DNA of 64,000 nt from an uncultured delta proteobacterium. Its GTDB lineage: Bacteria; Desulfobacterota; Desulfuromonadia; Desulfuromonadales; JACZKF01. A program made the translations under genes and the position numbers. The notes below the pieces were generated by a model, which made no database searches, was not told the origin of the DNA, and worked only from the letters and a program-made list of their open reading frames with translations. Every line of letters starts with the position of its first letter. Position 1 is the first letter of the stretch. This document shows, piece by piece, positions 2,433 to 17,218 of the stretch. The stretch spans positions 352,001-416,000 of the forward strand of contig CAWFKQ010000005.1 in assembly GCA_963816395.1 (NCBI GenBank), written 5' to 3'.

Positions 2433-3473
2433 TCAGATCAGCCCGCGGGCTTCCGCCACCTGTCCCCGGTAGAAATCGAAGATCAGATGCAGCGCCTGGC
2501 GCATGTCCACCTGCGGCTGCCAGCCGAGCTCGGCGCAGGTGTTGTCGATTTTCGGCACCCGGGTCTGCACGTCCTGGTAACCTTCGCCGTAGTATTCCTG
2601 CGACAGCACCTCCACCAGCCGCACCTTTTCCGCCGATTCCCGGTACTCTTCGATGCTGCGCCCCAGGTCCAGCATCATCGTCGCCAGCTCGCGCACGGAA
2701 AAGTCGTTGACCGGATTGCCGATGTTGTAGATCTTGCCGCTGGCCACCCCGTCCGGGTTCTCGATGATGCGCAGCAAGGCGTCGATGCCGTCGCTGACAT
2801 AGGTGAACGCCCGCTTCTGGCGGCCGCCGTCGACCAGGCTGATGTTTTCCCCGCGCACGATATGGCCGAGGAACTGGGTCAGTACCCGGGAGCTCCCTTC
2901 CTTGGGGGTGTGGATGCTGTCCAGGCCCGGGCCGATCCAGTTGAAGGGGCGGAAGAGGGTGAAATCGAGCCGCCCTTCCATGCCGTACCCCCAGATGACC
3001 CGGTCCATGAGCTGCTTGGCGCAGGAGTAAATCCAGCGCGGCTTGTTGATCGGTCCGAGCACCAGCTCCGACTGGTAGGGATCGAAGGATTCGTCCCGGC
3101 ACATCCCGTAGACCTCGGAGGTGGAGGGGAAAACGATGCGTTTGCCGTACTGCACGCACTGGCGGACGATCGGCAGGTTGGCCTCGAAATCGAGCGAGAA
3201 GACCCGCAGCGGATCCTTCACATAGGTGGCCGGGGTGGCAATGGCCACCAGGGGCAGGACCACGTCGCACTTGCAGACATGGTATTCGACCCATTCCCGG
3301 TTGATCGTGATGTCCCCTTCGAAGAAATGGAAACGCGGATGCGCAAGCAGGTCGGCCACCCGCTCCTGGTTCATGTCCATGCCGTAGACGTGCCAGTCGG
3401 TGTCATCGATGATGCGCTGGCTGAGGTGATGGCCGATGAAACCGTTGACGCCCAGGATCAATACCTTCTTCAT
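2433..3473 (-). CDS. arnA: UDP-glucuronate oxidase/decarboxylase (stand-alone ArnA C-terminal domain, ArnA2)
   Basis: LILGVNGFIGHHL, VLPLVAIATP, PSTSEVYG, RWIYSCAKQLMDRVI, FRPFNWIGP. Confidence 0.92.
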   Translation of the reverse strand: MKKVLILGVNGFIGHHLSQRIIDDTDWHVYGMDMNQERVADLLAHPRFHFFEGDITINREWVEYHVCKCDVVLPLVAIATPATYVKDPLRVFSLDFEANLPIVRQCVQYGKRIVFPSTSEVYGMCRDESFDPYQSELVLGPINKPRWIYSCAKQLMDRVIWGYGMEGRLDFTLFRPFNWIGPGLDSIHTPKEGSSRVLTQFLGHIVRGENISLVDGGRQKRAFTYVSDGIDALLRIIENPDGVASGKIYNIGNPVNDFSVRELATMMLDLGRSIEEYRESAEKVRLVEVLSQEYYGEGYQDVQTRVPKIDNTCAELGWQPQVDMRQALHLIFDFYRGQVAEARGLI

Positions 3474-4403
3474 GCTTCTGCTCCAGGTTGTAATAAATGC
3501 CCGCCGAACAGGGTGGACAGCTCACCGGCCGGCAAGGCCGGAGCGAATTCATGGGCCAGGATCTCCAGTCGACGGCCGTCCCGGCAGTCGGCATAGAGCC
3601 TGTTGCCCTCCAGGTAAAGGCAGGGGGCGGCAGTCGGATGACGGGCGGCTTCGCTGTCGATCCGGCTGCGCAGTATCCGCAGGGTCCTGCCGGCCAGGGT
3701 GGTGAAGGCGCCGGGATATGGCGGGGCCACCGCCCGGATCAGGTTGTGGATCCGTTCGGCGGAGAGCTGCCAGTCGATGCGCCCGTCCGCCGGCCGCCGG
3801 CCGCCGAAATAGCTCCCCTGCCGCAGGTCGAGAGGGATGCGGGGCGCCTGCCCGGCAACCAGCAGCGGCAGGGAGCGGTGCAGGACCAGCTCGGCCGCCC
3901 AGGTGACCTTGTGGAACACCTCCAGGGCGGTATCGTCGCCCAGGATCGGCACCGCCTGCTGATCGACCAGGGGACCGGCGTCCGGCTTCAGCTCCATGTA
4001 GTGCAGGCTCGCACCGGTCTCCCGCTCGCCGTTGATGATGGCCCAGTTGACCGGGACCCGGCCGCGGTAGCGCGGGAAGGAGCGAGCCGTGCATGTTGAG
4101 GGCACCGCGGCGGGGGATGGACAGCAGCCCCTCCTTGAGCATCTTGCGGTAATAGAAGGAGAAGATGAAATCGGGCTGCAGCTCGCGCACCCTGGCGATC
4201 ACTTCAGGGGTATTGGGGTCCTCCGGGGTGATCACCGGGATGTCGTGCCGCTGCGCCAGTTCGGCGACGCTGGCGAACCAGAGGGTCTCGCCCGGGTCAT
4301 CCCGGTGGGTGACCAGCAGGGAAACTTCCATCCCCCCATCGAGCAGGACCGACAGGCAGCGGTAGCCGACGTTGTGATAGGCGAAGACCACGCACCGGTT
4401 CAC
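3470..4403 (-). CDS. UDP-L-Ara4N formyltransferase (stand-alone ArnA N-terminal domain, ArnA1), frameshift near 4085
   Basis: VVFAYHNVG, DFIFSFYYR, NMHGSLLP in one frame; YRGRVPVNWAIINGERETG in the next. Confidence 0.88.
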
Positions 4404-5398
4404 TTCCCGGCCTCCTGCAGCGGCTGACACACGGGCGATTCCTCCTCGAGAATGCCGCTGATCAGGTAGCGGGGACGCTCCCGGACCTGCTGGTAGATGC
4501 GCCCGACGTATTCCCCCAGCAGGCCGATGCCGAAAAGCAGGATGCCGATGAGGAAAAAGGTGATGGCGAAGAGGGTGAAGACCCCCTCCACTTCCGGGCC
4601 GATGATCAGCCGCCGCAGCACGAGGTAGATCACCAGGATGCCGGAGAGAAGGGAAATGGCCATGCCGGCGAGGGAAAACATCTGCAGCGGCACCACCGAG
4701 AAGGCGGTCATCAGGTCGAAGTTGAGGCGGATCAGCTTGTAGAGGGAATATTTCGACTCCCCCGCCTCGCGCTCGGCATGCTCGACGACGATTTCCGTCG
4801 GCCTGGCCGCATAGAGATAGGCCAGGGCCGGGATGTAGGTATTGAGCTCGCGGGTAGCGTTGATGGCGTCGATCACGGCACGGCCATAGGCGCGCAGCAT
4901 GCAGCCCTGGTCGGTCATCCGGATGCGGGTGATGCGCTGGCGCACCTTATTCATCAGGCGGGAGGCGGCCTTGCGCCAGAAGATGTCCCGGCGCTTGTTG
5001 CGAATCGTACCCACGTAATCGAACCCCTCGTCCATCTTCGCCAGCAGCTTGCCGATTTCCTCCGGCGGGTTCTGCAGGTCGGCATCCAGGGTCACGATCC
5101 GCCGGCCGCGGCAATGCTTGAAGCCGGCCAGGATGGCGGCATGCTGGCCGAAATTGCCGCTGAACAGGATCACCCGGGTCTCGGCCGGCCGCTTCTCGTA
5201 CTGCTCCCGCAGCAGGGCGGCCGAGCGGTCGGCACTGCCGTCCTCGACGAACAGGCATTCGTAGGAGCGCCCGGTGGCATCGAGGGCCCGGTAGAGGCGA
5301 TCGAACAGGGCGGGGAGCACCGCCTCTTCGTTGTAGACCGGGATCACCACCGAAATTTCCGGTAGCGGTTCCCCCTTGATTTTACTTTTGGTTGCCAT
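4400..5398 (-). CDS. arnC: Undecaprenyl-phosphate L-Ara4FN transferase (GT2)
   Basis: SVVIPVYNEE, NFGQHAAILAGF, TLDADLQNPPEEI, DQGCMLRAY, two C-terminal TM helices. Confidence 0.9.
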   Translation of the reverse strand: MATKSKIKGEPLPEISVVIPVYNEEAVLPALFDRLYRALDATGRSYECLFVEDGSADRSAALLREQYEKRPAETRVILFSGNFGQHAAILAGFKHCRGRRIVTLDADLQNPPEEIGKLLAKMDEGFDYVGTIRNKRRDIFWRKAASRLMNKVRQRITRIRMTDQGCMLRAYGRAVIDAINATRELNTYIPALAYLYAARPTEIVVEHAEREAGESKYSLYKLIRLNFDLMTAFSVVPLQMFSLAGMAISLLSGILVIYLVLRRLIIGPEVEGVFTLFAITFFLIGILLFGIGLLGEYVGRIYQQVRERPRYLISGILEEESPVCQPLQEAGK

Positions 5399-5413
5399 AT
5401 GGGCGTCAATCCT

Positions 5414-5484
5414 GTAGGGGCGCCGCTTGCTGCGCCCGATTTGCCGGGGATAATCCACCAGGGCGCAGCAAGCGGCGCCCCAAC
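5414..5484. repeat. GTAG-type REP doublet (REPIN-like inverted repeat)
   Basis: GTAGGGGCGCCGCTTGCTGCGCCC (5414-5437) and near-perfect reverse complement GGGCGCAGCAAGCGGCGCCCCAAC (5461-5484). Confidence 0.8.
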
Positions 5485-5509
5485 GTGGTATGTCGAAGGC
5501 TCATGCACC

Positions 5510-6636
5510 TCAGCCCCCGGACAGCACCTCGCGCAGGGCGCGGCAGACCCTGTCCACATCCGCCGTCTCCATGCCCGGGAAGAGCGGCAGGGTGACCGTC
5601 TCCCGGCCGATGCGCTCGGCGTTGGGGAACTGCCCTCCCCGGTACCCCATGGCGCGGTACAGGCTGAACAGGTGCAGGGCCGGGTAATGGATGCCGATGC
5701 CGATCCCCCGCTCCTTCATCGCCTGCTGAAAGGCGGTCCGGCTGAGGCCGAGCCGCTCGAAGGGAAGCAGCAGGGTGAACATGTGCCAGCTGTGCCCGGC
5801 ATCGCCCGGCGCCGGCAGTACCCCCGGCGGCTCCTCCCGGAAGGTTTTCCAGGTAGCGGGCCGCCAACAGGCGGCGTTTGGCGTTGAACTCCTCCAGCCG
5901 TTTCAGCTGTCCCAGCCCGACGCGGGCGGCGACGTCGGAGAGGTTCATCTTGCCGCCGGCGACGGTGACGTCCATTTCTCCCGCCGAGTCGCGGGAGATG
6001 CCATGGAAGCGCAGTTTGTCCAGGCGGGCGAGGAGCGCCGGATCGCCGACCGAGAGCGCTCCCCCCTCGATGGTGGTCATGTTCTTGTTGGGATGGAAGC
6101 TGAAGCCGACCAGGTCGCCGAAGGCGCCGATCCGCCGCTCCCCGCCAGGCGCTGCCGATGGCGTGGGCGGCGTCTTCGATGACCCGCAGACCGCGGCGCT
6201 CGGCCAGTCGGTAGAGCGCGTCCATGTTGACCGGCAGGCCCGAGAAATGCACCGGCATGATCGCCCGGGTGCGCGGGGAGAGGGCCGCTTCGACCTGCTC
6301 CAGGTCGAGGTTGCGGGAGGCGAGCTCGACATCGACGAAGACCGGCCGGGCGCCGGCGCGCACGACCACGTTGGCGGTGGCGGCGAAGGTCATCGCCGGC
6401 ACGATCACCTCGTCCCCGGGCCCGATGTCGCACAGGGCCAGGGCCACTTCCAGCGCCGCGGTACCGGAGCTGAAGGCCCGCACCGTCCGCCCGCCGCCCA
6501 GGTAATCGGCCAGGGCCGCCTCGAAAGCGCTCACCTGCGGGCCGGTGGCGAGCCAGCCGGATTGGAGCACTTCCACCACCCCCTCGATCGTCTCCTGATC
6601 GAGGGTGGGCCGGGTAAAGGGGAGAAACTCGGTCAT
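5510..6636 (-). CDS. arnB: UDP-4-keto-arabinose aminotransferase (DegT/DnrJ family), frameshifts near 6140 and 5825
   Basis: FLPFTRP, SGWLATGP, VIEDAAHAIG; then FSFHPNKNMTTIEGG; then GIHYPALH, TLPLFP across three frames. Confidence 0.88.
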
Positions 6637-6731
6637 TGCTCTTCTTTCTTCAAAATGCCGATGCCCTGATAAAAGAAAGGGGAAACCCAGTCAGGCTGAG
6701 CAAAAATGCCCAGATGCAAGGCCGCCTGAGA

Positions 6732-7200
6732 TTATCCTTCGGCATAAGGGGAGGCCGAGGGTACGTCGTTGGCGAAGGATACAAGCCGCCCAACGCCGCA
6801 GAAGGGGGTTATTAATCGGCCGCCTGAGCAGCTGCGGGCGACGATATAGACGCCGACAATAATCACCCCGATCCCCAGCAGGCGGAAGGGTGTCACCGCC
6901 TCGCCGAAAAGGACGTAGGCAGCGGCGGCGTTCACCACATAGCCGATGGACAGCATCGGGTAGGCGATGCTGACTTCGACCCGGGACAGGGCGAGAATCC
7001 AGATGACGACGCTGATGACATAGCAGCCCAGGCCGCCGAAAATATGCGGTTCGAAGGCCAGTCGCCAGCCGGCGGCAACCAGGCTTTCCCACTTCAGCTG
7101 GATGGCGCCGAGGCTGCGCACACCCGGCCTTCAGCAACAGCTGGGCGGCGGCGTTCAGCAGGACGCCGATCAGGATCAGAATGAAACTGGTCGGATTCAT
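6732..7200 (-). CDS. SMR/EamA-type undecaprenyl-P-L-Ara4N flippase subunit (ArnE/F/G-like), frameshift near 7122; 3' end uncertain
   Basis: GVLLNAAAQLLLKAG then WILALSRVEVSIAYPMLSIGYV. Confidence 0.8.
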
Positions 7201-8849
7201 GGTTTGGTCACCACCACTCGCCGCGGGTCGCGGGCGATCTCGCGCATGGGGATGTCCTGCCGGCGCAGCGCGGTAAAAGGGCGGGCGACATCACCGCCAG
7301 GGCCTTCGGCTCCGCCAGCCAGCGGGCCACGAAGCCGGGAACATCCGGAACCCACTTCTGCGGTTCCCGGGAAATCCCGAAATCCAGCTCCCCCCGGCTC
7401 TTGACCAGGGTCAGCGTGCGGTTCAGATAGAAGGGAAGAGTCTGATCATAGCGGCCGACACAGTAAAAAGGGATGTCCGAGGTATTGTAGGGAGCAACCT
7501 GGTGGGCGAGAGCATGCGCGGAATAGGAAGGGGTCAAGGCCTGCGCCCCGGTGAGCCAGAGGTGCACGGCGAAAAACCAGCTCAAGGCCAAGGTCCCGAT
7601 AACCCTTTCGAATCTCGCCTGCCGAAGCCACCGCCAGGCCGCCAGGGTTCCCAGCAGAATCAGCCCTAAACCTGCCGTCAACCATGGGGTGAGGGCGGCA
7701 TAGAGTTCCGCCGGGGCACTGGGCCGGCCGAAACGTTCGAGGCCGAACGTCAGCACGAACAGCAAACCGCCGAGGGCGAAAAGGCCGGAGAGCAGGGTGT
7801 TCCAGCGCAGTTGCGACCGGGCCGGGCTGGCCAGCCGCAGGCCGATAAGCAGCGCCAGCGCCGGGAATACCGGCTCGATGTAAGGAGGCAGCTTGGAATC
7901 GGAGAGGGAAAAGAAGACCAGGATGGCCCCCCCCCAGGACCAGAGGAAACGCTGCGCATCGAAACCTTCCGCGCGGTTCCTGCCGGCGCCATCCCTCGGT
8001 CAGCACCGCCAGCTGCTGCGGCATCCAGGGAAGACTGCCGACGATCAGGATCGGCAGAAAAAACCACCAGGGTTCATAGCGATGATGCACCTTGGTGAGA
8101 AATCGCTCGAAGTGTTCATGGATGAAAAAGAAATGGAAGAAATCGGGGTTCTTCAGAGAGACCAGGATGAACCAGGGCGCCCCCAGCAGCAGGAAGACGG
8201 TCAGCCCGGAACCAAAATGCAGACGTCGCCAGAGTTTCCAGTCCCGCTGCAGCAGGGTATAGAGCACCACGGCGCCGGCAGGCAGGACGAGCCCGATCAG
8301 CCCCTTGCTGAGCACCGCCAGGGCCGCGCTGCCCCAGGCCATGAGCATCCAGGACCGGCTTTTCCCGCCCTCGGCGGCGGCCTGCTGCGCCAGCAGAATA
8401 CCGACCATGCTTGCGGTCAGGAAAAAAGTCAGCCCGGTATCGAGGGTATTGAAGCGGCCGAAGGAGGCGAAGTAGATCGTGCTGGCGAGCGCGACGGCGG
8501 CATAGAGGCCGGTGCGGCGGTCGAAAAGGCGGCGCCCGGCCAACCAGACCAGCAGGACGGTGCCGAAGCCGGTCAGGTACGACCACAACCGGGCCGTCCA
8601 GTTATGCAGGCCGAAGGCGCTGTAAGCGGTTGCCGTTGCCCAGTATTGCAGCGCCGGCTTTTCAAAATACTTGAAGTCGTCCAGGCGGGGGGTCAGCCAG
8701 TCTCCGCTTGCCACCATTTCCCTGGGGATCTCGGCATAGCGGCCTTCGTCCGGATGGAACAGGTCGCGGTACTGGATATTACTGAACCACACTACCGCCA
8801 GGAGGAGAATAATCAGAGCGTGGTTGCGGATCTTCGAGGATTCATTCAC
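7197..8849 (-). CDS. arnT: L-Ara4N transferase (GT83/ArnT), frameshifts near 7970 and 7270
   Basis: PDEGRYAEIPREM, YFEKPALQYW, LSKGLIG, SDSKLPPYI; corrected C-terminus ends in ATGA overlap with the flippase. Confidence 0.9.
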
Positions 8850-9293: not shown

Positions 9294-9484
9294 TAATTTT
9301 TCCCCGGGTGGAGGCGGCCGGCGACCTGCGGCCGCGAATTATCTCCAGTTTATCACTGTTGAAGAGCAAGAAAACCATCTCCGGGCCGCTTTGCTCCAAC
9401 AGAGAAATTTTCTGCTTGCGAGTTTAGACATTCGGGAGAAAGGTTTTATTCTTTCAGGAGGGTCAAGCAACTTATGGAGAGAAA

Positions 9485-9979
9485 ATGACGAACCAGGAAC
9501 CTGCCTACATTTCCCGGGTACGCATCGAACGCCTGAAGGGGCCGATCCGCCTGGCCTATCTGCCAGCAGAAAAAGAACCGGTGGTCTTCGGCATGCACGG
9601 ACCGGTGGCGGAGCACTACGGCCGCAGGGCGGAGGAAGTAAGAGAGCCGCACGCCACTACCCTCGACTACGTGGTGGCGGCGACCGGCGGCTGAATGGTC
9701 GGCACTTTTGCCGGCGCGCTGGAAGCGCGTCAGATCCCCGCCGGCGGGGGGCGTCTAACCGCCGAAGTCCGCGGTGAAATCGAACTCGAAGACAATGTTC
9801 TGGTCATCCGCCGCATCCATATCGTCTATCACCTCACGGCCACTCCCGGCCAGCAGGAAACCATCGACCGGGTCCAACGGATCCACCATCAGGGGTGCCC
9901 GGTCTACCGTTCGCTGCACAAGGGAATCGAGATCACCTCCGAAGTGCAAATCAAGGAGGAGCAGGCGACTACCGGTTGA
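9485..9979 (+). CDS. OsmC/Ohr-family protein with in-frame TGA (9692-9694), candidate selenoprotein
   Basis: ORFs 9485-9694 and 9695-9979 share one frame; DYVVAATGG*MVGTF places TGA at the first catalytic Cys position; second Cys motif CPVYRSL present. Confidence 0.8.
9713..9731 (+). promoter_or_regulatory. Candidate bacterial SECIS hairpin
   Basis: GGCGCGCT-GGA-AGCGCGTC: 8-bp stem with a G-first apical loop 26 nt after the TGA. Confidence 0.6.
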
Positions 9980-11090: not shown

Positions 11091-11507
11091 CTAATTTTCA
11101 CGCTCGGCTCTTTCAAAGGCAGCTTGCGCCCCAGGCAGGTCCCCGAGTTTACTTCGTGCCCGGCCGATGATCCGCCAGTTTTCAGTCAGCAGGCGCTTGT
11201 CATCCCCGCCGAGGGCATTGGCTTTGGCAGCGAGGTTTTCCGCTTGCCGGTATTGTCCCTGATCCAGTCGGACGCGCGCCAGTTCCTGCCACAGCAGGGG
11301 ATTGCGCGGTTCGATGCGCAAGGCGCGTTCCAGCGAGGCGCCGGCGGCCTCCGAACGGCCGGCGGACAACTGGGTTTGTGCCTGGCCCAGCAGGGCCACC
11401 ACCGCCTCGTTCCGCGACGGTGGCGGCGGCGCACCCGGCTGCAGCCCCGCACACCCGGCAAGAAGCAGGACCGCGGCAATTATCGAAGCACTGCGCATTC
11501 CGGTCAT
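11091..11507 (-). CDS. TPR lipoprotein, LpoP-like
   Basis: Lipobox LLAGC, Pro-rich linker, TPR ASLERALRIEPRNPLLWQELARVRL; overlaps the PBP1B stop. Confidence 0.8.
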   Translation of the reverse strand: MTGMRSASIIAAVLLLAGCAGLQPGAPPPPSRNEAVVALLGQAQTQLSAGRSEAAGASLERALRIEPRNPLLWQELARVRLDQGQYRQAENLAAKANALGGDDKRLLTENWRIIGRARSKLGDLPGAQAAFERAEREN

Positions 11508-13793
11508 CGGTCGAATATCCTTTCGAACCAGCCTTTGATCGACCTGCCCAGGGAGCCCGGCCCGCACGGTGCGGACTCCGTCGGCGCCGAGCCGGCAATG
11601 AACGGAATTTCGACGGCATCCCGACACCCCTTGCCGCTGCGCAGGCCCGATACCGGGTCGATCCAGACCCGTTCGATATTCTCCGGTTCGGGCAGGATCA
11701 GCGGCTCGGGGTTCAGGCCGGCCATCATGTCCCCCCAGACGGTCATGGCCCCGGATGCCCCGGTCAGACCCGTCGACACATTGTCATCGCGTCCGACCCA
11801 GACCACGGCCAGTCGATCCTCGGTAAAGCCGGCGAACCAGCTGTCGCGAAAGTCGTCGGTGGTGCCGGTTTTTCCCGCGGCATCGAGCGCCGGCGGCAGA
11901 TAACCAGCGAGCCCGCGCGCCGTCCCCTCGCGAACCACATCCTGCATGGCCGTGGTCAACAGGTAGAGAGGCGCCGGCTCGATGGTCTGCTCCACGTTGA
12001 GCGGATAGCGCTGCAGCGGTTCACCCTCGGCGGTCAGCACTGCCCGGATCGCCCGCAGCGGCGTGCGAAAACCGCCGCCGGCAATCGTCTGGTAAACTTG
12101 CGTAACCTCCAGGGGGGAAAGGGCGTTCGAACCGAGCAGGCTGGAGGCAAACTCCGGCAGATCACGGTCAATCCCGAGCCGCTGGAGGTTGGCCATCACC
12201 CGGGAGACGCCGAGGGACAGGCCGAGCCGCACCGTCGGCACGTTGTACGAGTTCGCCAGGGCGGCTTGCAGCGACACCTCGCCGTGGAATTCCTTATCGT
12301 AGTTCTGCGGTGCCCAGTCGCCGGTGCCTGCCTGCTGCAGAACCAGTGGGCTGTCGTCAAGCAGCGTCGCCAGGGTGTAGCTCTTCGGTTGCTCCAGGGC
12401 GGTGAGGTAGACGACCGGTTTAATCAGCGAGCCGATCGGTCTTTGGGCGTCGAGAGCGCGGTTGAACCCCTCGAAACGCGGGTCGCGCCCCCCCACCAGG
12501 GCCTGGACCTCGGCGTTCTGAGTGCTGGTGACAACCAGCGCGCCCTGCAGCGTGGCGGGCTTTATGGCGCGGTCCTTTTCCAGACGCGCCAGGCGCTTGC
12601 TCAAAGCGGTTTCGGCCGCGCGCTGCACCCGGGGATCCAGGGTGGTGAAAATCTGCAGTCCTTCTGAACGCAGATCCTGGTCGCGGTAGTCGCGCGTCAA
12701 CTGGCGATACACCAGGTTCAGAAAGGCCGGATACGGAGAGGTGCCGCGGGGCGGCCTCTCGACCACGCCAAGGGGCGCCGCCTGGGCCGAACGCTCCTGC
12801 TCGGCGGTAATGACCCCCGCTTCGGCCATCTCCCCAAGGACGAGATTGCGCCGCTCCAGGGCGCGCTGCGGATGGCGGCGCGGGCTGAAATAGGTCGGCC
12901 CCTTGAGCATCCCCACCAGCAGGGCCGCCTCGGGGAGATCGAGATGGCTCAGAGGCTGATCGAAATAGAAGGGGGCCGCCAGACCGAATCCGTGAATCTC
13001 GCGGTTGCCGTCCTGCCCCAGGTAGACTTCATTGAGGTAGGTTTCGAGGATCTCGTCTTTGCGGTAATGGATCTCCAGCAGGACCGCCATCACCATTTCG
13101 GTGAGCTTTCGCTGCAGCGTGCGCTCGGCGGTCAGGTAGAAATTCTTGACGAGCTGCTGGGTCAGAGTGCTGCCGCCCTGCACGCTCTCGCCGCTTGCCG
13201 TCGCGAGGAGTGGCCCGAGCGATGCCCCGCGGATCGATGCCGTGGTGGGAATAGAACCGGCGGTCCTCAACCGCGATCAGGGCATCGACCACCTGCCTGG
13301 GTACATCGGCGAGTTTTACCAGAACCCGATCTTCGTTTTTCCCGGGATAGATGCCGCCGATCAGGGCCGGGTCCAGGCGCACGAGCGGTAACGGTTTATC
13401 CCCGGCGAGAGCGCGCAGTGCTCTCACCTGGCCGTTCCCGAACTCGACGCGCAGCGATATCGCCTCCTGGGGACCGTCGGCGAAGACGAAGGGGCGCGTG
13501 ACCAGATCCAGGGTGTCGTTGCTCCAGTGGTAAGTGCCAGGGGCCAGAGGATGCGGCGTCTCGCGGTAATCGAGCAGGGCGAGTTCCGTGTTCATTTCCG
13601 CAGGCCGCAGGCCCAGGCCCGGATACAGCTCCAGCGGCCGCGCATAGACCCGCGCCGGCAGCGCGAACCGCTTGCCCTCGAAGCGTGCCCGCACCGTGAA
13701 GTCCAGGTAGACTGTATAGATAGCGGCAAGGAGCAGTCCTGCCAGGGCAAAGAATAGCAGAAATCTTATTTTCGGATGCCGGCGTTTAGCCAT
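11504..13793 (-). CDS. mrcB: Penicillin-binding protein 1B with UB2H-like domain, frameshift near 13210
   Basis: LPARVYARPLEL, EDRRFYSHHGID, QGGSTLTQQLVKN, GSLIKP (SxxK), SYN, GKTGT. Confidence 0.9.
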
Positions 13794-14334
13794 CGTCTTT
13801 CCTAGGTCCCGCAGGAGGCCCGTTTTCTTCCTTGAAAAGAATTCTGCCAAGCCGCTTCTCGGCCTGGACCCGGTGTTGCCGAAGCCTCAAAAGGCCTCAA
13901 TCTACCACATTCGCTCTTTGATTCGAACACCTAGTTTTGTCCGTCCCCGCGATTGCTCCGCTTTTCCTCCGCTCATCAGAGGAGCCGGAAAAAGTTCCCT
14001 GTGGTTTTGGCAGATGCGAAAGCCAAGAAGCCGGCGGGGAGGTTCGAACGGACACGCCGCAACAATCCGCCATGGAAGCTTGGGCGGCCGCCGCATTGTG
14101 TCACGGCCGGATGCGATACCGCTTATTTCTCAGCTTCTTGGGCCGACGTAGCGCCCCGGCGGACAGCTGGCAACTCATTTCGCAACTGTCCGGGTGCAAG
14201 GCGCGGGATTTGCACTCCCGTTCTGAGTCATGCCGACTGCAGACGATACCCGAAGACCCTTCCATAGCTGCGAGAAATATTCCAGCAAGAAATGTTCCCT
14301 TTCCCAAATGCGGGCGCCGGTGCTTATGTCAAGA

Positions 14335-15322
14335 ATGAAGTTTCCCAGCAGTCTGATTCTGTTAATAACGTGGGTCTGTTTACTGGCACCCGGTATCCCG
14401 GCCGAGGCGGCGGAAAGCGAGTTCGCCGCCTGGCTGGAGAATGTCCGCGTGGCGGCCCGTTCCGCCGGCATTTCGGAAAAAACCGTGCAGACCGCCCTGT
14501 CCGGCATCCAGGAGCCGCTCCCCCGGGTGGTCGATCTCGATCGGAAGCAGCCCGAGTCCCTGCAGAGCTTTGCGGATTACGTCGCGGCCCGGGCCAATGA
14601 GAAACGGATCGCCAAGGGGCGCAGGATGACTGCGCCGCTATCCGACCTGGCTGGGCAGGGTCGAACGAAAATACCGGGTACAGAGACGCTTCCTGGTGGC
14701 TCTGTGGGGGATCGAAACCAATTACGGCGAACACTCAGGCAGCTTCCCGGTCATCCAGTCCCTGGTCACCCTGGCCTATGACGAGCGCCGCGGCCCCTAT
14801 TTTCGCAGGGAGCTGTTCGATGCTCTGCGGGTCCTCGACGCCGGCCACATTCCATTGGAGCGCATGAAGGGCTCCTGGGCAGGGGCCATGGGTCAATGTC
14901 AGTTCATGCCCTCCTCTTTTCGCCGTTTTGCGGTCGATGCCGAAGGCAACCATCGCATCGACATCTGGGACTCGGTTCCCGACGTGCTGGCTTCGACCGC
15001 CAATTACCTGGCAAGTGCCGGATGGAAGGATGACCAGACCTGGGGGCGTCCGGTGCGGTTGCCAAAAAATTTCGATTTCTCCCTGGCCGGACTGGATACC
15101 CGTCTGCCGCTTTCTCGCTGGCAAGCCCTCGGGGTGCGGCGCAGCAACGGCCGCGCCCTGCCCCGGCGCAATCTCGAGGCCTCGCTGATCGCCCCCGAAG
15201 GCCCCGAGGGACCGGCCTACCTGGTGTATGACAATTTCCGGGTGCTTCTGGCCTGGAACCGATCCAAATCATTTGCAGTGGCGGTCGGGACTCTTGCCGA
15301 CCGGGTTGCCGGCCGGAGATGA
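14335..15322 (+). CDS. Lytic murein transglycosylase (MltB/SltB family), frameshift near 14630
   Basis: Signal peptide, LDRKQPE, ALWGIETNYG, GSWAGAMGQCQFMPSS, YDNFRVLLAWNRS. Confidence 0.88.
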
Positions 15323-15780: not shown

Positions 15781-16419
15781 TTAACTTCCCGGTTCCGAGG
15801 AACACGCTTGAAGGCCCCGGATCTGGTGGTCGTGAAGGCGCGAGAAGAGCAGCAGGGCCGCTGATGCCCCGATAAGGGCGAAGAGCATGTCCGACTGGGT
15901 GTCCCAGGGATCTCCCTGCGTCCCCAGAAACGCATCGGCGCCCTGCCCGAGCCCGACGGCGGCCGCCCATTCGATGAGCTCGTATGCGGCGCTGATCGCC
16001 ATAACGATGCAGATCACGATGAAGGCGAGCATTTTTCTGCCGCGCACGTACTGACCGCGGATGAGGATCTCCCGGGCGACCAGGGCGGGGACGAGGCCCT
16101 GGAAGAAGTGGCCGATCTTGTCGTAGGGATTGCGGTCGAGATCGAAAAGGTCGGCAAGGTAGAAACCGAGGGGCACCCTGGCATAACTGTAGGCCCCGCC
16201 ATCAATGAGCACCACGGCATGCAGGAAGATGAAAGCATAGAGCAGACCGGTCAGCGGAAACCGGCGCCAGGTCGCCCACAGGATGGGCAGAGCGATGAAC
16301 ACCGGGAAAACCTCCAGCAGCCAGGTCGTGCGGTCATAGGGGTGGGCGCCGGAGAGCGCCAGCAGGCCCAGCAGAGCAACGGAGGCAAGGGCCAGGAATT
16401 GCGGGCGGGTTATCGACAT
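15781..16419 (-). CDS. yjdF: DUF2238/YjdF-family inner membrane protein
   Basis: PYDRTTWLLE, GGAYSYARVPLG, RNPYDKIGHFFQG, YELIEW, FLGTQGDPWDTQSDM. Confidence 0.85.
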   Translation of the reverse strand: MSITRPQFLALASVALLGLLALSGAHPYDRTTWLLEVFPVFIALPILWATWRRFPLTGLLYAFIFLHAVVLIDGGAYSYARVPLGFYLADLFDLDRNPYDKIGHFFQGLVPALVAREILIRGQYVRGRKMLAFIVICIVMAISAAYELIEWAAAVGLGQGADAFLGTQGDPWDTQSDMLFALIGASAALLLFSRLHDHQIRGLQACSSEPGS

Positions 16420-16479
16420 ATGCGGACCCTCCTGTATCTGGGGTTTTCTTTCGCGCTTCAAGGCGGGCACGGGTCATCC

Positions 16480-16762
16480 GTTCCCGAAGCCAAAGGCGTT
16501 CCCTGTCGTTCTCAGCGAGAGTGTCTCTCAGGTAGTCAGCGGCAAGTTTCTTGATCTGAGTTGCTGTCATTATTCCTGGCCTCATCAAAGCGAAAGTTCT
16601 CTCGGAGCGTTCGAGGTGTCTGGAGAAGTGAAGCCTTGCTTGCTTGCGGTCGGTAGTCTTCAGGGACTTCCTGATGTCAGACCTTGGGAACCACTGGGAC
16701 AAGTCGGAGGGGATTTTAACTCTCAGGTAAAAGACACCGCTTCGCTGCTGCAAGTATGGCAT
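16480..16762 (-). mobile_element. Truncated integrase N-terminus (DUF6538-like) next to tmRNA 3' end
   Basis: MPYLQQRSGVFYLRVKIPSDL...DIRKSLKTTDRKQAR; no catalytic R-H-R-Y domain follows. Confidence 0.7.
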
Positions 16763-16862
16763 AGAAAAGCCTCTCTAGTGTAACCCTCTGGGGGTCCAGT
16801 TGGGGTCACACTTGAGAGGCTCGGCTATGGAAACCAACGTAACTATCTGATTTCCTTCGATT

Positions 16863-17218
16863 TGGTGGAGGTGGCGGGAATCGAACCCGCGTCCGAACGT
16901 CTTTCACGTAAGGCTTCTACATGCTTAGTCTGTATATTGGATTTAACCCGCCGGAGCTCCCACAGACAGGATATCCGACGGGCGATTCTGCTTTATTTCG
17001 CCCCGGCACCGCAGACCCTTGCCGGGACTAGCCCACTAAATTGACGTCTCAGGCCCTACGCGGGCGATAGAACATGAGACGTGACGGCAATTAAGCCGCC
17101 AGTGCGTACTGAACGTCGTTGTCGGCGTTTGTGTTTGTGCCAGTTTTTTAACGAGGCCAACTGGCGTCCCCGGCATGCCACCTTCGCTTCCGACCTCCGT
17201 CGAAACCAGGTCACCCCC
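16863..17218 (-). ncRNA. ssrA: tmRNA, tag reading frame ADNDVQYALAA* (17126-17091)
   Basis: 5' GGGGGTG pairs with 3' CACCTCC-ACCA; T-arm GGTTCGATTCC; tag ending YALAA; adjacent to smpB. Confidence 0.97.

Follow-up and report, generated by a model that had tools for sequence, protein, structure and literature searches.

The window, i.e. the whole stretch of 64,000 nucleotides that was analysed, lies on contig C5 of a host assembly that is 98.9% complete and comprises 16 contigs. The ORF listing contains an ORF of 69 aa (9485-9694, plus strand), which ends with DYVVAATGG followed by a TGA at 9692-9694, and a directly adjoining plus-strand ORF of 94 aa in the same frame (9695-9979), which begins with MVGTF. 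An earlier note on this DNA had pointed out this pair, separated only by a TGA, as well as an intact distal CPVYRSL motif, and both observations hold: the cysteine of this motif, Cys138, is encoded at 9896-9898. When the TGA is read as selenocysteine (Sec), the two ORFs become one protein of 164 aa, ...TLDYVVAATGG-U-MVGTF...CPVYRSL. The features of the locus are the following.

9425..9452 (+): sigma-70-like promoter match TAGACA-16-TATTCT, weak (1 found, 0.3 expected)
9476..9479 (+): GGAG, ribosome-binding-like site seen in the sequence, 5 nt 5' of the ATG at 9485
9485..9979 (+): predicted single coding sequence of 164 aa with Sec at residue 70 and an OsmC/Ohr fold (Pfam PF02566, structure prediction, Foldseek)
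9548..9550 (+): Arg22, where strand 2 begins, candidate equivalent of the catalytic Arg in Ohr (160/161 Sec forms; R/K in 36/44 Cys forms)
9596..9598 (+): His38, in a subfamily-specific GxHG..A.HY insert, candidate active-site residue (161/161 Sec forms, 36/44 Cys forms)
9665..9667 (+): Asp61 (TLDY), nine residues N-terminal of Sec, candidate active-site acid (161/161 Sec forms; D/E in 44/44 Cys forms)
9692..9694 (+): in-frame TGA, putative Sec70 at the peroxidatic-Cys position (aligned with the Cys of T. thermophilus OsmC 1ukk and of Ta0195; homologue columns)
9713..9731 (+): SECIS-like hairpin of 8 pairs, -11.8 kcal/mol, loop U-GG-A-A, closing pair U-A, 26 nt past the TGA (folding, homologous loci)
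9896..9898 (+): Cys138 (CPVYRS), putative resolving cysteine (Cys in 159/161 Sec-form rows and 44/44 Cys-form rows)
9977-9979 (+): terminal TGA of the 164-aa coding sequence (sequence)

The gene is solitary, with a divergent small membrane protein gene on one side and a convergent Na/Ca antiporter gene on the other. No redox gene adjoins it in the host genome, no conserved operon was found in the host's lineage, and no terminator-like site was found at the locus. Elsewhere in the window, a DUF6538 ORF (16334-16762, minus strand), apparently a truncated integrase-like gene, lies just upstream of a stretch near 16860-17040 that we take to be tmRNA-like.

Five genes near the locus are frameshifted, their pieces continuing the same Pfam profile (window 3470-8849, minus strand; 11504-13850, minus strand; 14230-15322, plus strand): a DegT-type aminotransferase (in three pieces), a formyltransferase, an ArnT-type glycosyltransferase, a transglycosylase/transpeptidase and an SLT transglycosylase. 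These frameshifts are likely indel errors of a long-read assembly, so a sequencing error at the TGA needed to be ruled out. The earlier note had named TGC or TGT in the reads as evidence against its interpretation; a contig of 116 nt assembled from public short reads, which differs from the window by one letter, spans the site and reads TGA, with a depth of 2 and possibly not independently of the assembly. Three of the four short-read contigs compared at the locus are less than 90% alike and belong to relatives. Among the public datasets listed as containing the locus, none is of RNA.

The codon itself is strictly conserved. TGA occupies the Sec column in 166 of 166 other homologous DNA loci (the host genome and two repeats not counted), and TAA, TAG, TGG, TGC and TGT occur there in none. 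In the first tallies, all 36 genome loci and all 80 metagenome loci spanning the column exhibited TGA, one further locus being only a fragment. These loci come from at least four phyla and include isolate genomes; the named sources are Acidobacteriota and Calditrichaceae MAGs, Geobacter argillaceus and Pseudonocardia adelaidensis. With regard to protein entries, an unfiltered profile search yielded 680 representatives at E <= 1e-10, the best 150 of which comprise 89 proteins spanning the column, 43 N-halves, 15 C-halves and 3 others. Among these best 150, 68 of the 89 spanning representatives have Cys at the Sec column, 3 have Trp and 18 another residue. The UGA thus stands at the catalytic Cys column, and homologues carry Cys or UGA there, as had been anticipated. 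Database Cys forms include WP_131969299.1 and MFL6333232.1. No DNA of a Cys form was found among 401 Actinomycetes, among 48 Acidobacteriota matches (out of 64) that were inspected at this position, or in plasmids, which gave no match. Full-length relatives with Gly, Ser or Ala at the catalytic column (P0158, P0160, P0161, P0170, P0183 and P0187), some of which lack the second Cys too, are possibly non-redox offshoots or errors.

The claim that gene callers split one 164-aa protein in two is also supported, the databases carrying half proteins. Among the best 150 of the 680 representatives, N-half and C-half proteins break at profile positions 66 and 68, and GenBank holds adjacent entries of 66 and 90 aa for one genome. 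Of the 120 matches listed in a database search, 51 are C-halves starting right after the TGA codon and 69 are long; at the Sec column, the long homologues among the matches listed exhibit Trp (53), Cys (13) or another residue (3). We rejected Trp as a real residue, since it is an annotation artefact of TGA-as-Trp translation: P0143 agrees at 160/160 residues, terminal TGA included, with locus L063 when the latter is translated with table 4, and the DNA of L063 has TGA. A second Trp at the normal gene end is found in 19 of 61 Trp forms, several of which share a cluster, compared with 1 of 16 Cys forms.

The earlier note had further proposed a SECIS-like hairpin, GGCGCGCT-GGA-AGCGCGTC (9713-9731), whose GGA loop lies 26 nt 3' of the TGA. 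Its position and its agreement with the published rules are well supported, whereas its folding energy, taken alone, is ordinary: in four windows the stability is not above chance compared with shuffles (z = -1.12, -0.25, 0.21 and -0.89), and we rejected folding energy as proof of a SECIS element for this reason. In the minimum-energy fold, an upstream 7-bp hairpin competes for part of the SECIS-like hairpin. The bSECIS model, as given in an excerpt of PMC13188914, describes a loop of 3-9 nt with G first or second, a stem of 4-16 bp, a spacing of 16-37 nt and an energy of <= -7.5 kcal/mol. The host hairpin agrees with all of these, with a GGA loop of 3 nt closed by U-A, 8 bp, 26 nt and -11.8 kcal/mol. 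Using our own script, which is not bSECISearch but implements these rules with at least 6 bp, we found such a hairpin in 148 of 155 distinct homologous loci. When moved to five other positions within these genes, the search succeeded in only 0-4 of 155, and in the host genome it succeeded after 167 of the 4041 TGAs at which long open frames end. The hairpin is above chance because it is conserved across loci, not on account of its folding energy.

This conservation is also visible in the codons and base pairs. In 113 distinct loci, the stem codons +8, +9 and +11 are frozen (Ala GCG in 105/106, Leu CTG in 112/113 and Ala GCG in 102/107), compared with 0.37 for each of the same three codons elsewhere in these genes, and the Glu codon in the loop is free, the loop's third base being variable. 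The seven inner stem pairs are kept in 124-131 of 133 rows (7 rows with a shifted hairpin left out); in these 133 rows, one pair is compensatory (27-35, G-C in 115 and A-U in 14), and the closing pair of the loop is U-G or U-A. Seven of the 155 loci fail the script yet keep the TGA. Three of these, from Actinomycetes (L043, L142 and L143), exhibit the TGA and the Sec machinery with no hairpin that passes the standard SECIS test, and possibly use a lineage-specific SECIS form. In divergent subgroups (L052-L057; L219 and L220), the TGA is kept and a different SECIS-like hairpin is found about 20 nt downstream, which suggests turnover of the SECIS element.

All four genes that had been named as a check on Sec decoding, selA, selB, selC (tRNA-Sec) and selD, are present on contig C10 of the host genome (G000), and selA, selB, selD and tRNA-Sec(UCA) all score above curated cut-offs.

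C10:86295-90668 (-): selA, selB and selD, adjacent (profile matches)
C10:104539-104630 (-): tRNA-Sec, about 14 kb from selA/selB/selD (above cut-off)

The host selD itself carries one TGA plus hairpin. Other in-frame TGA and hairpin sites in the host genome lie at C1:81772(-), C4:158638(-), C5:516650(-), C8:31631(-) and C16:542053(+), which, judging by motif, we take to be a thioredoxin-like protein (WUPHC), a DsbA-like protein (YIUPWC), two formate dehydrogenase-like proteins (RIUHS) and an MvhD-like protein (CTWUAY); the motif scan for other selenoproteins that gave these sites returned mostly noise. At least one of selA, selB and tRNA-Sec was found in 96 of 96 carriers tested (95 of 95 besides the host). 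In a set of 34 carrier genomes, each with at least one of these genes, selA is present in 32 and tRNA-Sec in 30; G015, which is 86% complete, exhibits tRNA-Sec only. Among Actinomycetes, selA is found in 5/5 carriers versus 117/401 sampled overall; two of these carriers, G106 and G113, are unpublished genomes, without which the count is 3/3, and their loci L139 and L143 also enter the codon and hairpin tallies. Among Acidobacteriota, 56 of 59 carriers have selA versus 241 of 342 non-carriers, against a baseline that includes the unpublished G505 and in which selA is common anyway (297/401); the three misses have selB and tRNA-Sec. The p-values of 1.8e-5 and 0.002 overstate the significance because carriers are kin and not independent.

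The alternatives to Sec decoding can be weighed against these observations. If the TGA were a true stop, the C-half could re-initiate at the next codon and the two halves could assemble into one fold. The next codon is indeed ATG in the host and in 84 of 165 loci, and gene callers annotate two proteins, as in the adjacent GenBank entries. However, CTC, CTT or CTA, which are not start codons, follow the TGA in 22 of 165 loci, so a second gene cannot start there, and inspection of the sequence upstream of the ATG at 9695 revealed no Shine-Dalgarno-like site. Moreover, the codon is TGA in 166/166 loci although TAA and TAG together end 1479 of 3548 long host frames, the split would remove the catalytic residue, and the SECIS-type hairpin is conserved, which makes two separate genes very improbable. 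A reading of UGA as Trp (codes 4/25) or as Cys could draw on the 53 Trp among the 69 long homologues in the matches listed, and UGA-to-Cys decoding by tRNA-Sec-like tRNAs is known. It is contradicted by the artefactual origin of this Trp (P0143/L063), by the absence of TGG from every locus, by tRNA-Sec being the sole UCA-anticodon tRNA of 49 in the host genome, and by TGA being the commonest stop of long host frames (2069/3548); we consider it just as improbable. A sequencing error, or a nonsense mutation that turned a Cys gene into a pseudogene, would fit an error-prone assembly with five frameshifted genes nearby and the lack of the gene in the 5 same-family genomes, the closest sampled. Nevertheless, 166 further loci, which span at least four phyla and include isolates, have the same TGA, the 116-nt short-read contig spans it unchanged, and both halves are conserved, which leaves this explanation with hardly any likelihood. 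Sec is very likely inserted at the UGA of 9485..9979, as predicted from sequence.

With regard to the fold, the whole protein matches Pfam OsmC (PF02566) with 46.3 bits (gathering cut-off 27.5), and the match, from 59 to 152, crosses the TGA; the C-half alone scores 33.4 bits and the N-half shows no OsmC match. AlphaFold2 predicts the 164-aa protein with a pLDDT of 90.5 and a pTM of 0.83, from an alignment in which, by our own count, 39 of 51 rows carry the artefactual Trp. The predicted model comprises three N-terminal strands, a short helix (39-44), a long helix (59-81) with residue 70, and, in the C-terminal part, two strands, a kinked helix with Cys138 and a last strand. All matches listed by Foldseek are of the OsmC/Ohr type, the best being Ta0195 with a TM of 0.73 over 153 columns, at identities of 9-18%. 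As this structural match extends over the whole length, both halves form one fold. In the alignment with 1ukk, the OsmC of T. thermophilus, its two Cys are matched by residue 70 and Cys138, which are 68 apart. A redox Cys pair about 60 residues apart is a mark of the Ohr/OsmC superfamily.

The N-terminal half had been described as atypical for OsmC, which is correct for its sequence and not for its fold, since the latter is OsmC-like over the whole length. What sets its sequence apart is an insert, some 15 residues long, that holds His38 and is absent from OsmC-like outgroups. His38, Asp61, Gly73, Leu79 and Gly97 are invariant in 161/161 Sec forms, the Gly at +3 from Sec being thus found in all of them; Arg22 (160/161) and Cys138 (159/161, the other two being a gap and an X) are nearly so. 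The alignments to solved OsmC/Ohr chains start past the region of the canonical catalytic Arg/Glu, and Arg22, His38 and Asp61 are conserved in the subfamily. The protein had also been suspected of belonging to a poorly described subfamily, and no NCBIfam model recognizes it at its cut-off.

Among the genomes sampled, the gene is carried by 13 of 61 from the host's order, by 59 of 401 Acidobacteriota (15%) and by 5 of 401 Actinomycetes; within the host's family it was found in 0 of 5. A WUP[YF]C peroxiredoxin-like protein is encoded within the flank, on either side, at 30 of 166 loci; these neighbours are of three sequence types, and none has Cys in place of U. The remaining 136 loci exhibit no such neighbour within short flanks, and the 30 loci are probably largely kin. 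Two of the WUP[YF]C examples are AhpC/TSA proteins, one of them fused to DsbD_N. Candidates are located at L024:2925-3986, L064:2498-3172 and in 28 other loci. The AhpC/TSA-DsbD_N fusion type, with a signal-peptide-like N-terminus and a best NCBIfam score of 58 bits versus a cut-off of 140, may be an unmodelled selenoprotein subfamily. In a quickly built tree with 107 rows, the Sec forms of the OsmC-like protein are interspersed with its Cys forms, with 17-18 changes, at least 6 of which are forced by starred branches.

Based on these observations, 9485..9979 very likely encodes one 164-aa selenoprotein with a predicted OsmC/Ohr fold, and we predict, with a probability of roughly 0.6, that its product is a selenol-based hydroperoxide reductase. 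In Ohr and OsmC, according to an excerpt of PMC5384416, the first Cys attacks the peroxide and forms a disulfide with the second; lipoyl groups then reduce this disulfide, and an Arg together with a Glu assists the reaction. In the proposed mechanism, SelB with Sec-tRNA would very likely bind the hairpin 26 nt downstream and decode the UGA as Sec70. Judging from fold and conservation, Sec70 very probably replaces the peroxidatic Cys; once oxidised by the substrate, it would form a selenenyl-sulfide with Cys138, to be reduced in turn by a dithiol donor. This donor could be lipoyl proteins, as in Ohr/OsmC (lipA is present in the host genome), or, in some Acidobacteriota, the neighbouring thioredoxin-fold selenoprotein. 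The substrate is probably a hydroperoxide, and the part played in Ohr and OsmC by the Arg/Glu pair would fall to Arg22, His38 and Asp61. Judging from the fold, a homodimer with two active sites is assumed in this model.

The main rival of a selenol peroxidase is an enzyme with another redox substrate, which is possible, if the less favoured choice: a Sec70/Cys138 selenoprotein acting as a disulfide/persulfide oxidoreductase, as a sulfur or selenium carrier or as a metal(loid) binder, in which the His-rich insert would shape a different pocket. In its favour, the host protein falls far below the cut-offs of OsmC and Ohr, the two families whose peroxidase activity is proven, and the insert of about 15 residues with its invariant His38 is lacking in OsmC-like outgroups. 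In addition, the residue aligned with Asp61 in YhfA-type proteins, whose activity is unknown, is likewise D/E, and the best structural match, Ta0195 (2onf), is itself labelled 'putative'. In contrast, the conserved Arg22 and Asp61 are found in roughly the same regions as the Ohr pair, and the recurrent neighbours are of the AhpC/TSA type, both of which favour the hydroperoxide reductase.

OsmC-like selenoproteins as a class have been known as predictions since 2005, when one with the motif UxxT was predicted from Sargasso Sea data (Zhang et al., PMC1088965). This type (NCBIfam NF041052, OsmC_like_Se; MCS5647933.1), likewise a prediction only, also belongs to PF02566, keeps the distal Cys and, in its members L174 and L206, both from one genome of the host's phylum, carries, at the helix position that Sec70 occupies, a Sec encoded by an in-frame UGA. 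The host protein nevertheless differs from it, and we rejected its membership on several grounds. It scores 23.4 bits versus a cut-off of 95, the best of 20 subfamily proteins and fragments scanned reaching 27.2; the motif is GG-U-[ML]-x-G-T (UxxG) in the subfamily and GF-U-LL-T (UxxT) in NF041052; and the identity is 24% over 108 aa with L174, none being reported with L206. The His38 insert is found in the subfamily and not in the NF041052 type. Tblastn with L174 and L206 found neither the host gene nor any of 116 subfamily loci; its single match within a subfamily locus, at L024:65-445, is a different, Cys-type gene, which we discarded as a subfamily gene. In a careful, unrooted tree of 38 rows, from which 10 of 27 outgroup rows (long branches among them) and most subfamily rows were left out, a 99/98 branch sets the subfamily apart, and the proteins placed between it and NF041052 have only Cys. 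On the deep alignment with two NF041052 members, the AU test rejects joining the two (p = 0.017).

The subfamily is uncatalogued in the published lists that we compared. The UxxT type is the only OsmC entry in the later selenoprotein lists, as far as excerpts of PMC9312934, PMC1976440 and PMC2398784 extend, and in Table 1 of PMC13188914 (119 families). The deep-Sep supplements gave 0 matches for the U-motifs of the subfamily, and OsmC is mentioned 0 times in the main texts of PMC12013277, PMC5029168 and bioRxiv 10.1101/2022.07.06.499078. The families of Haft and Tolstoy 2025, in the form in which a 2026 review lists them, include no OsmC, and the compared portion of PMC13326102 does not list the subfamily either. 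BSepDB or Deng et al. 2026 could list it; since tblastn with NF041052 members misses the subfamily, a homology pipeline like that of BSepDB would probably miss it as well.

A more far-reaching reading, less likely than not, is an uncatalogued, mostly Sec-encoded OsmC-fold family that gained Sec independently of the UxxT type, uses an Arg22/His38/Asp61 site and has switched many times between Sec and Cys. It would be among the common selenoproteins of Acidobacteriota from soils and sediments (15% of the genomes sampled), and in some lineages a thioredoxin-fold selenoprotein encoded alongside it, and not lipoyl groups, would recycle it. If the selenoprotein reading of the subfamily holds, a frequent selenoprotein is absent from the 119-family review of 2026 and from NCBIfam models, and its public entries are two fragments or a Trp protein. 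As it would be both absent from inventories and mis-annotated, the selenoproteomes of Acidobacteriota, the host's order, Calditrichota and some Actinomycetes would be under-counted. The subfamily would also offer a natural Sec/Cys series of one small, well-folded OsmC-type enzyme, with pairs within one 90% cluster, and thereby a direct test of the benefit of selenium to Ohr/OsmC chemistry and of the role of the superfamily's 'third group'.

Compared with OsmC peroxiredoxins (TIGR03562; E. coli 1nye/1qwi, T. thermophilus 1ukk), the host protein shares the fold over the whole length (TM 0.65-0.68) and the redox residues 68 apart. It scores 17.8 bits versus a cut-off of 85.8, at 14-17% identity, Sec replaces Cys, and the invariant residue in the loop preceding helix 1 is His in the subfamily, not Arg. 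With Ohr (TIGR03561; 1usp, 6eb4), it shares the fold (TM 0.62-0.64), a conserved Arg near the strand 1-2 loop and C-P-aromatic at the second Cys; the identity is 12-13%, and there is no TIGR03561 match. The acid of the subfamily is an Asp at -9, whereas that of Ohr is a Glu at -10. A third, 'Ohr-like' group without the canonical Arg/Glu is described as poorly characterised in excerpts of PMC5384416 and PMC8945050, the former reporting one such protein with no activity in one lab's assay. The host genome holds a second OsmC-like domain of this YhfA type, with Cys, at C3:79839-80186 (minus strand), at the end of a 438-codon open frame; its NF041052 score of 60 bits places it closer to that model than the host Sec gene. 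YhfA/'Ohr-like' proteins are the best structural matches listed for the host protein (Ta0195, 2onf, TM 0.73; Aq1549, 2egt, TM 0.69), share the D/E-Y nine residues before the first Cys and are likewise without the canonical Arg/Glu placement. In contrast to them, the subfamily is mostly Sec-encoded and exhibits the GxHG..A.HY insert in place of the DEP...GG loop. The rules of Sec decoding are unchanged by this finding, and Sec in an OsmC-like fold was already predicted; what is new is the UxxG subfamily.
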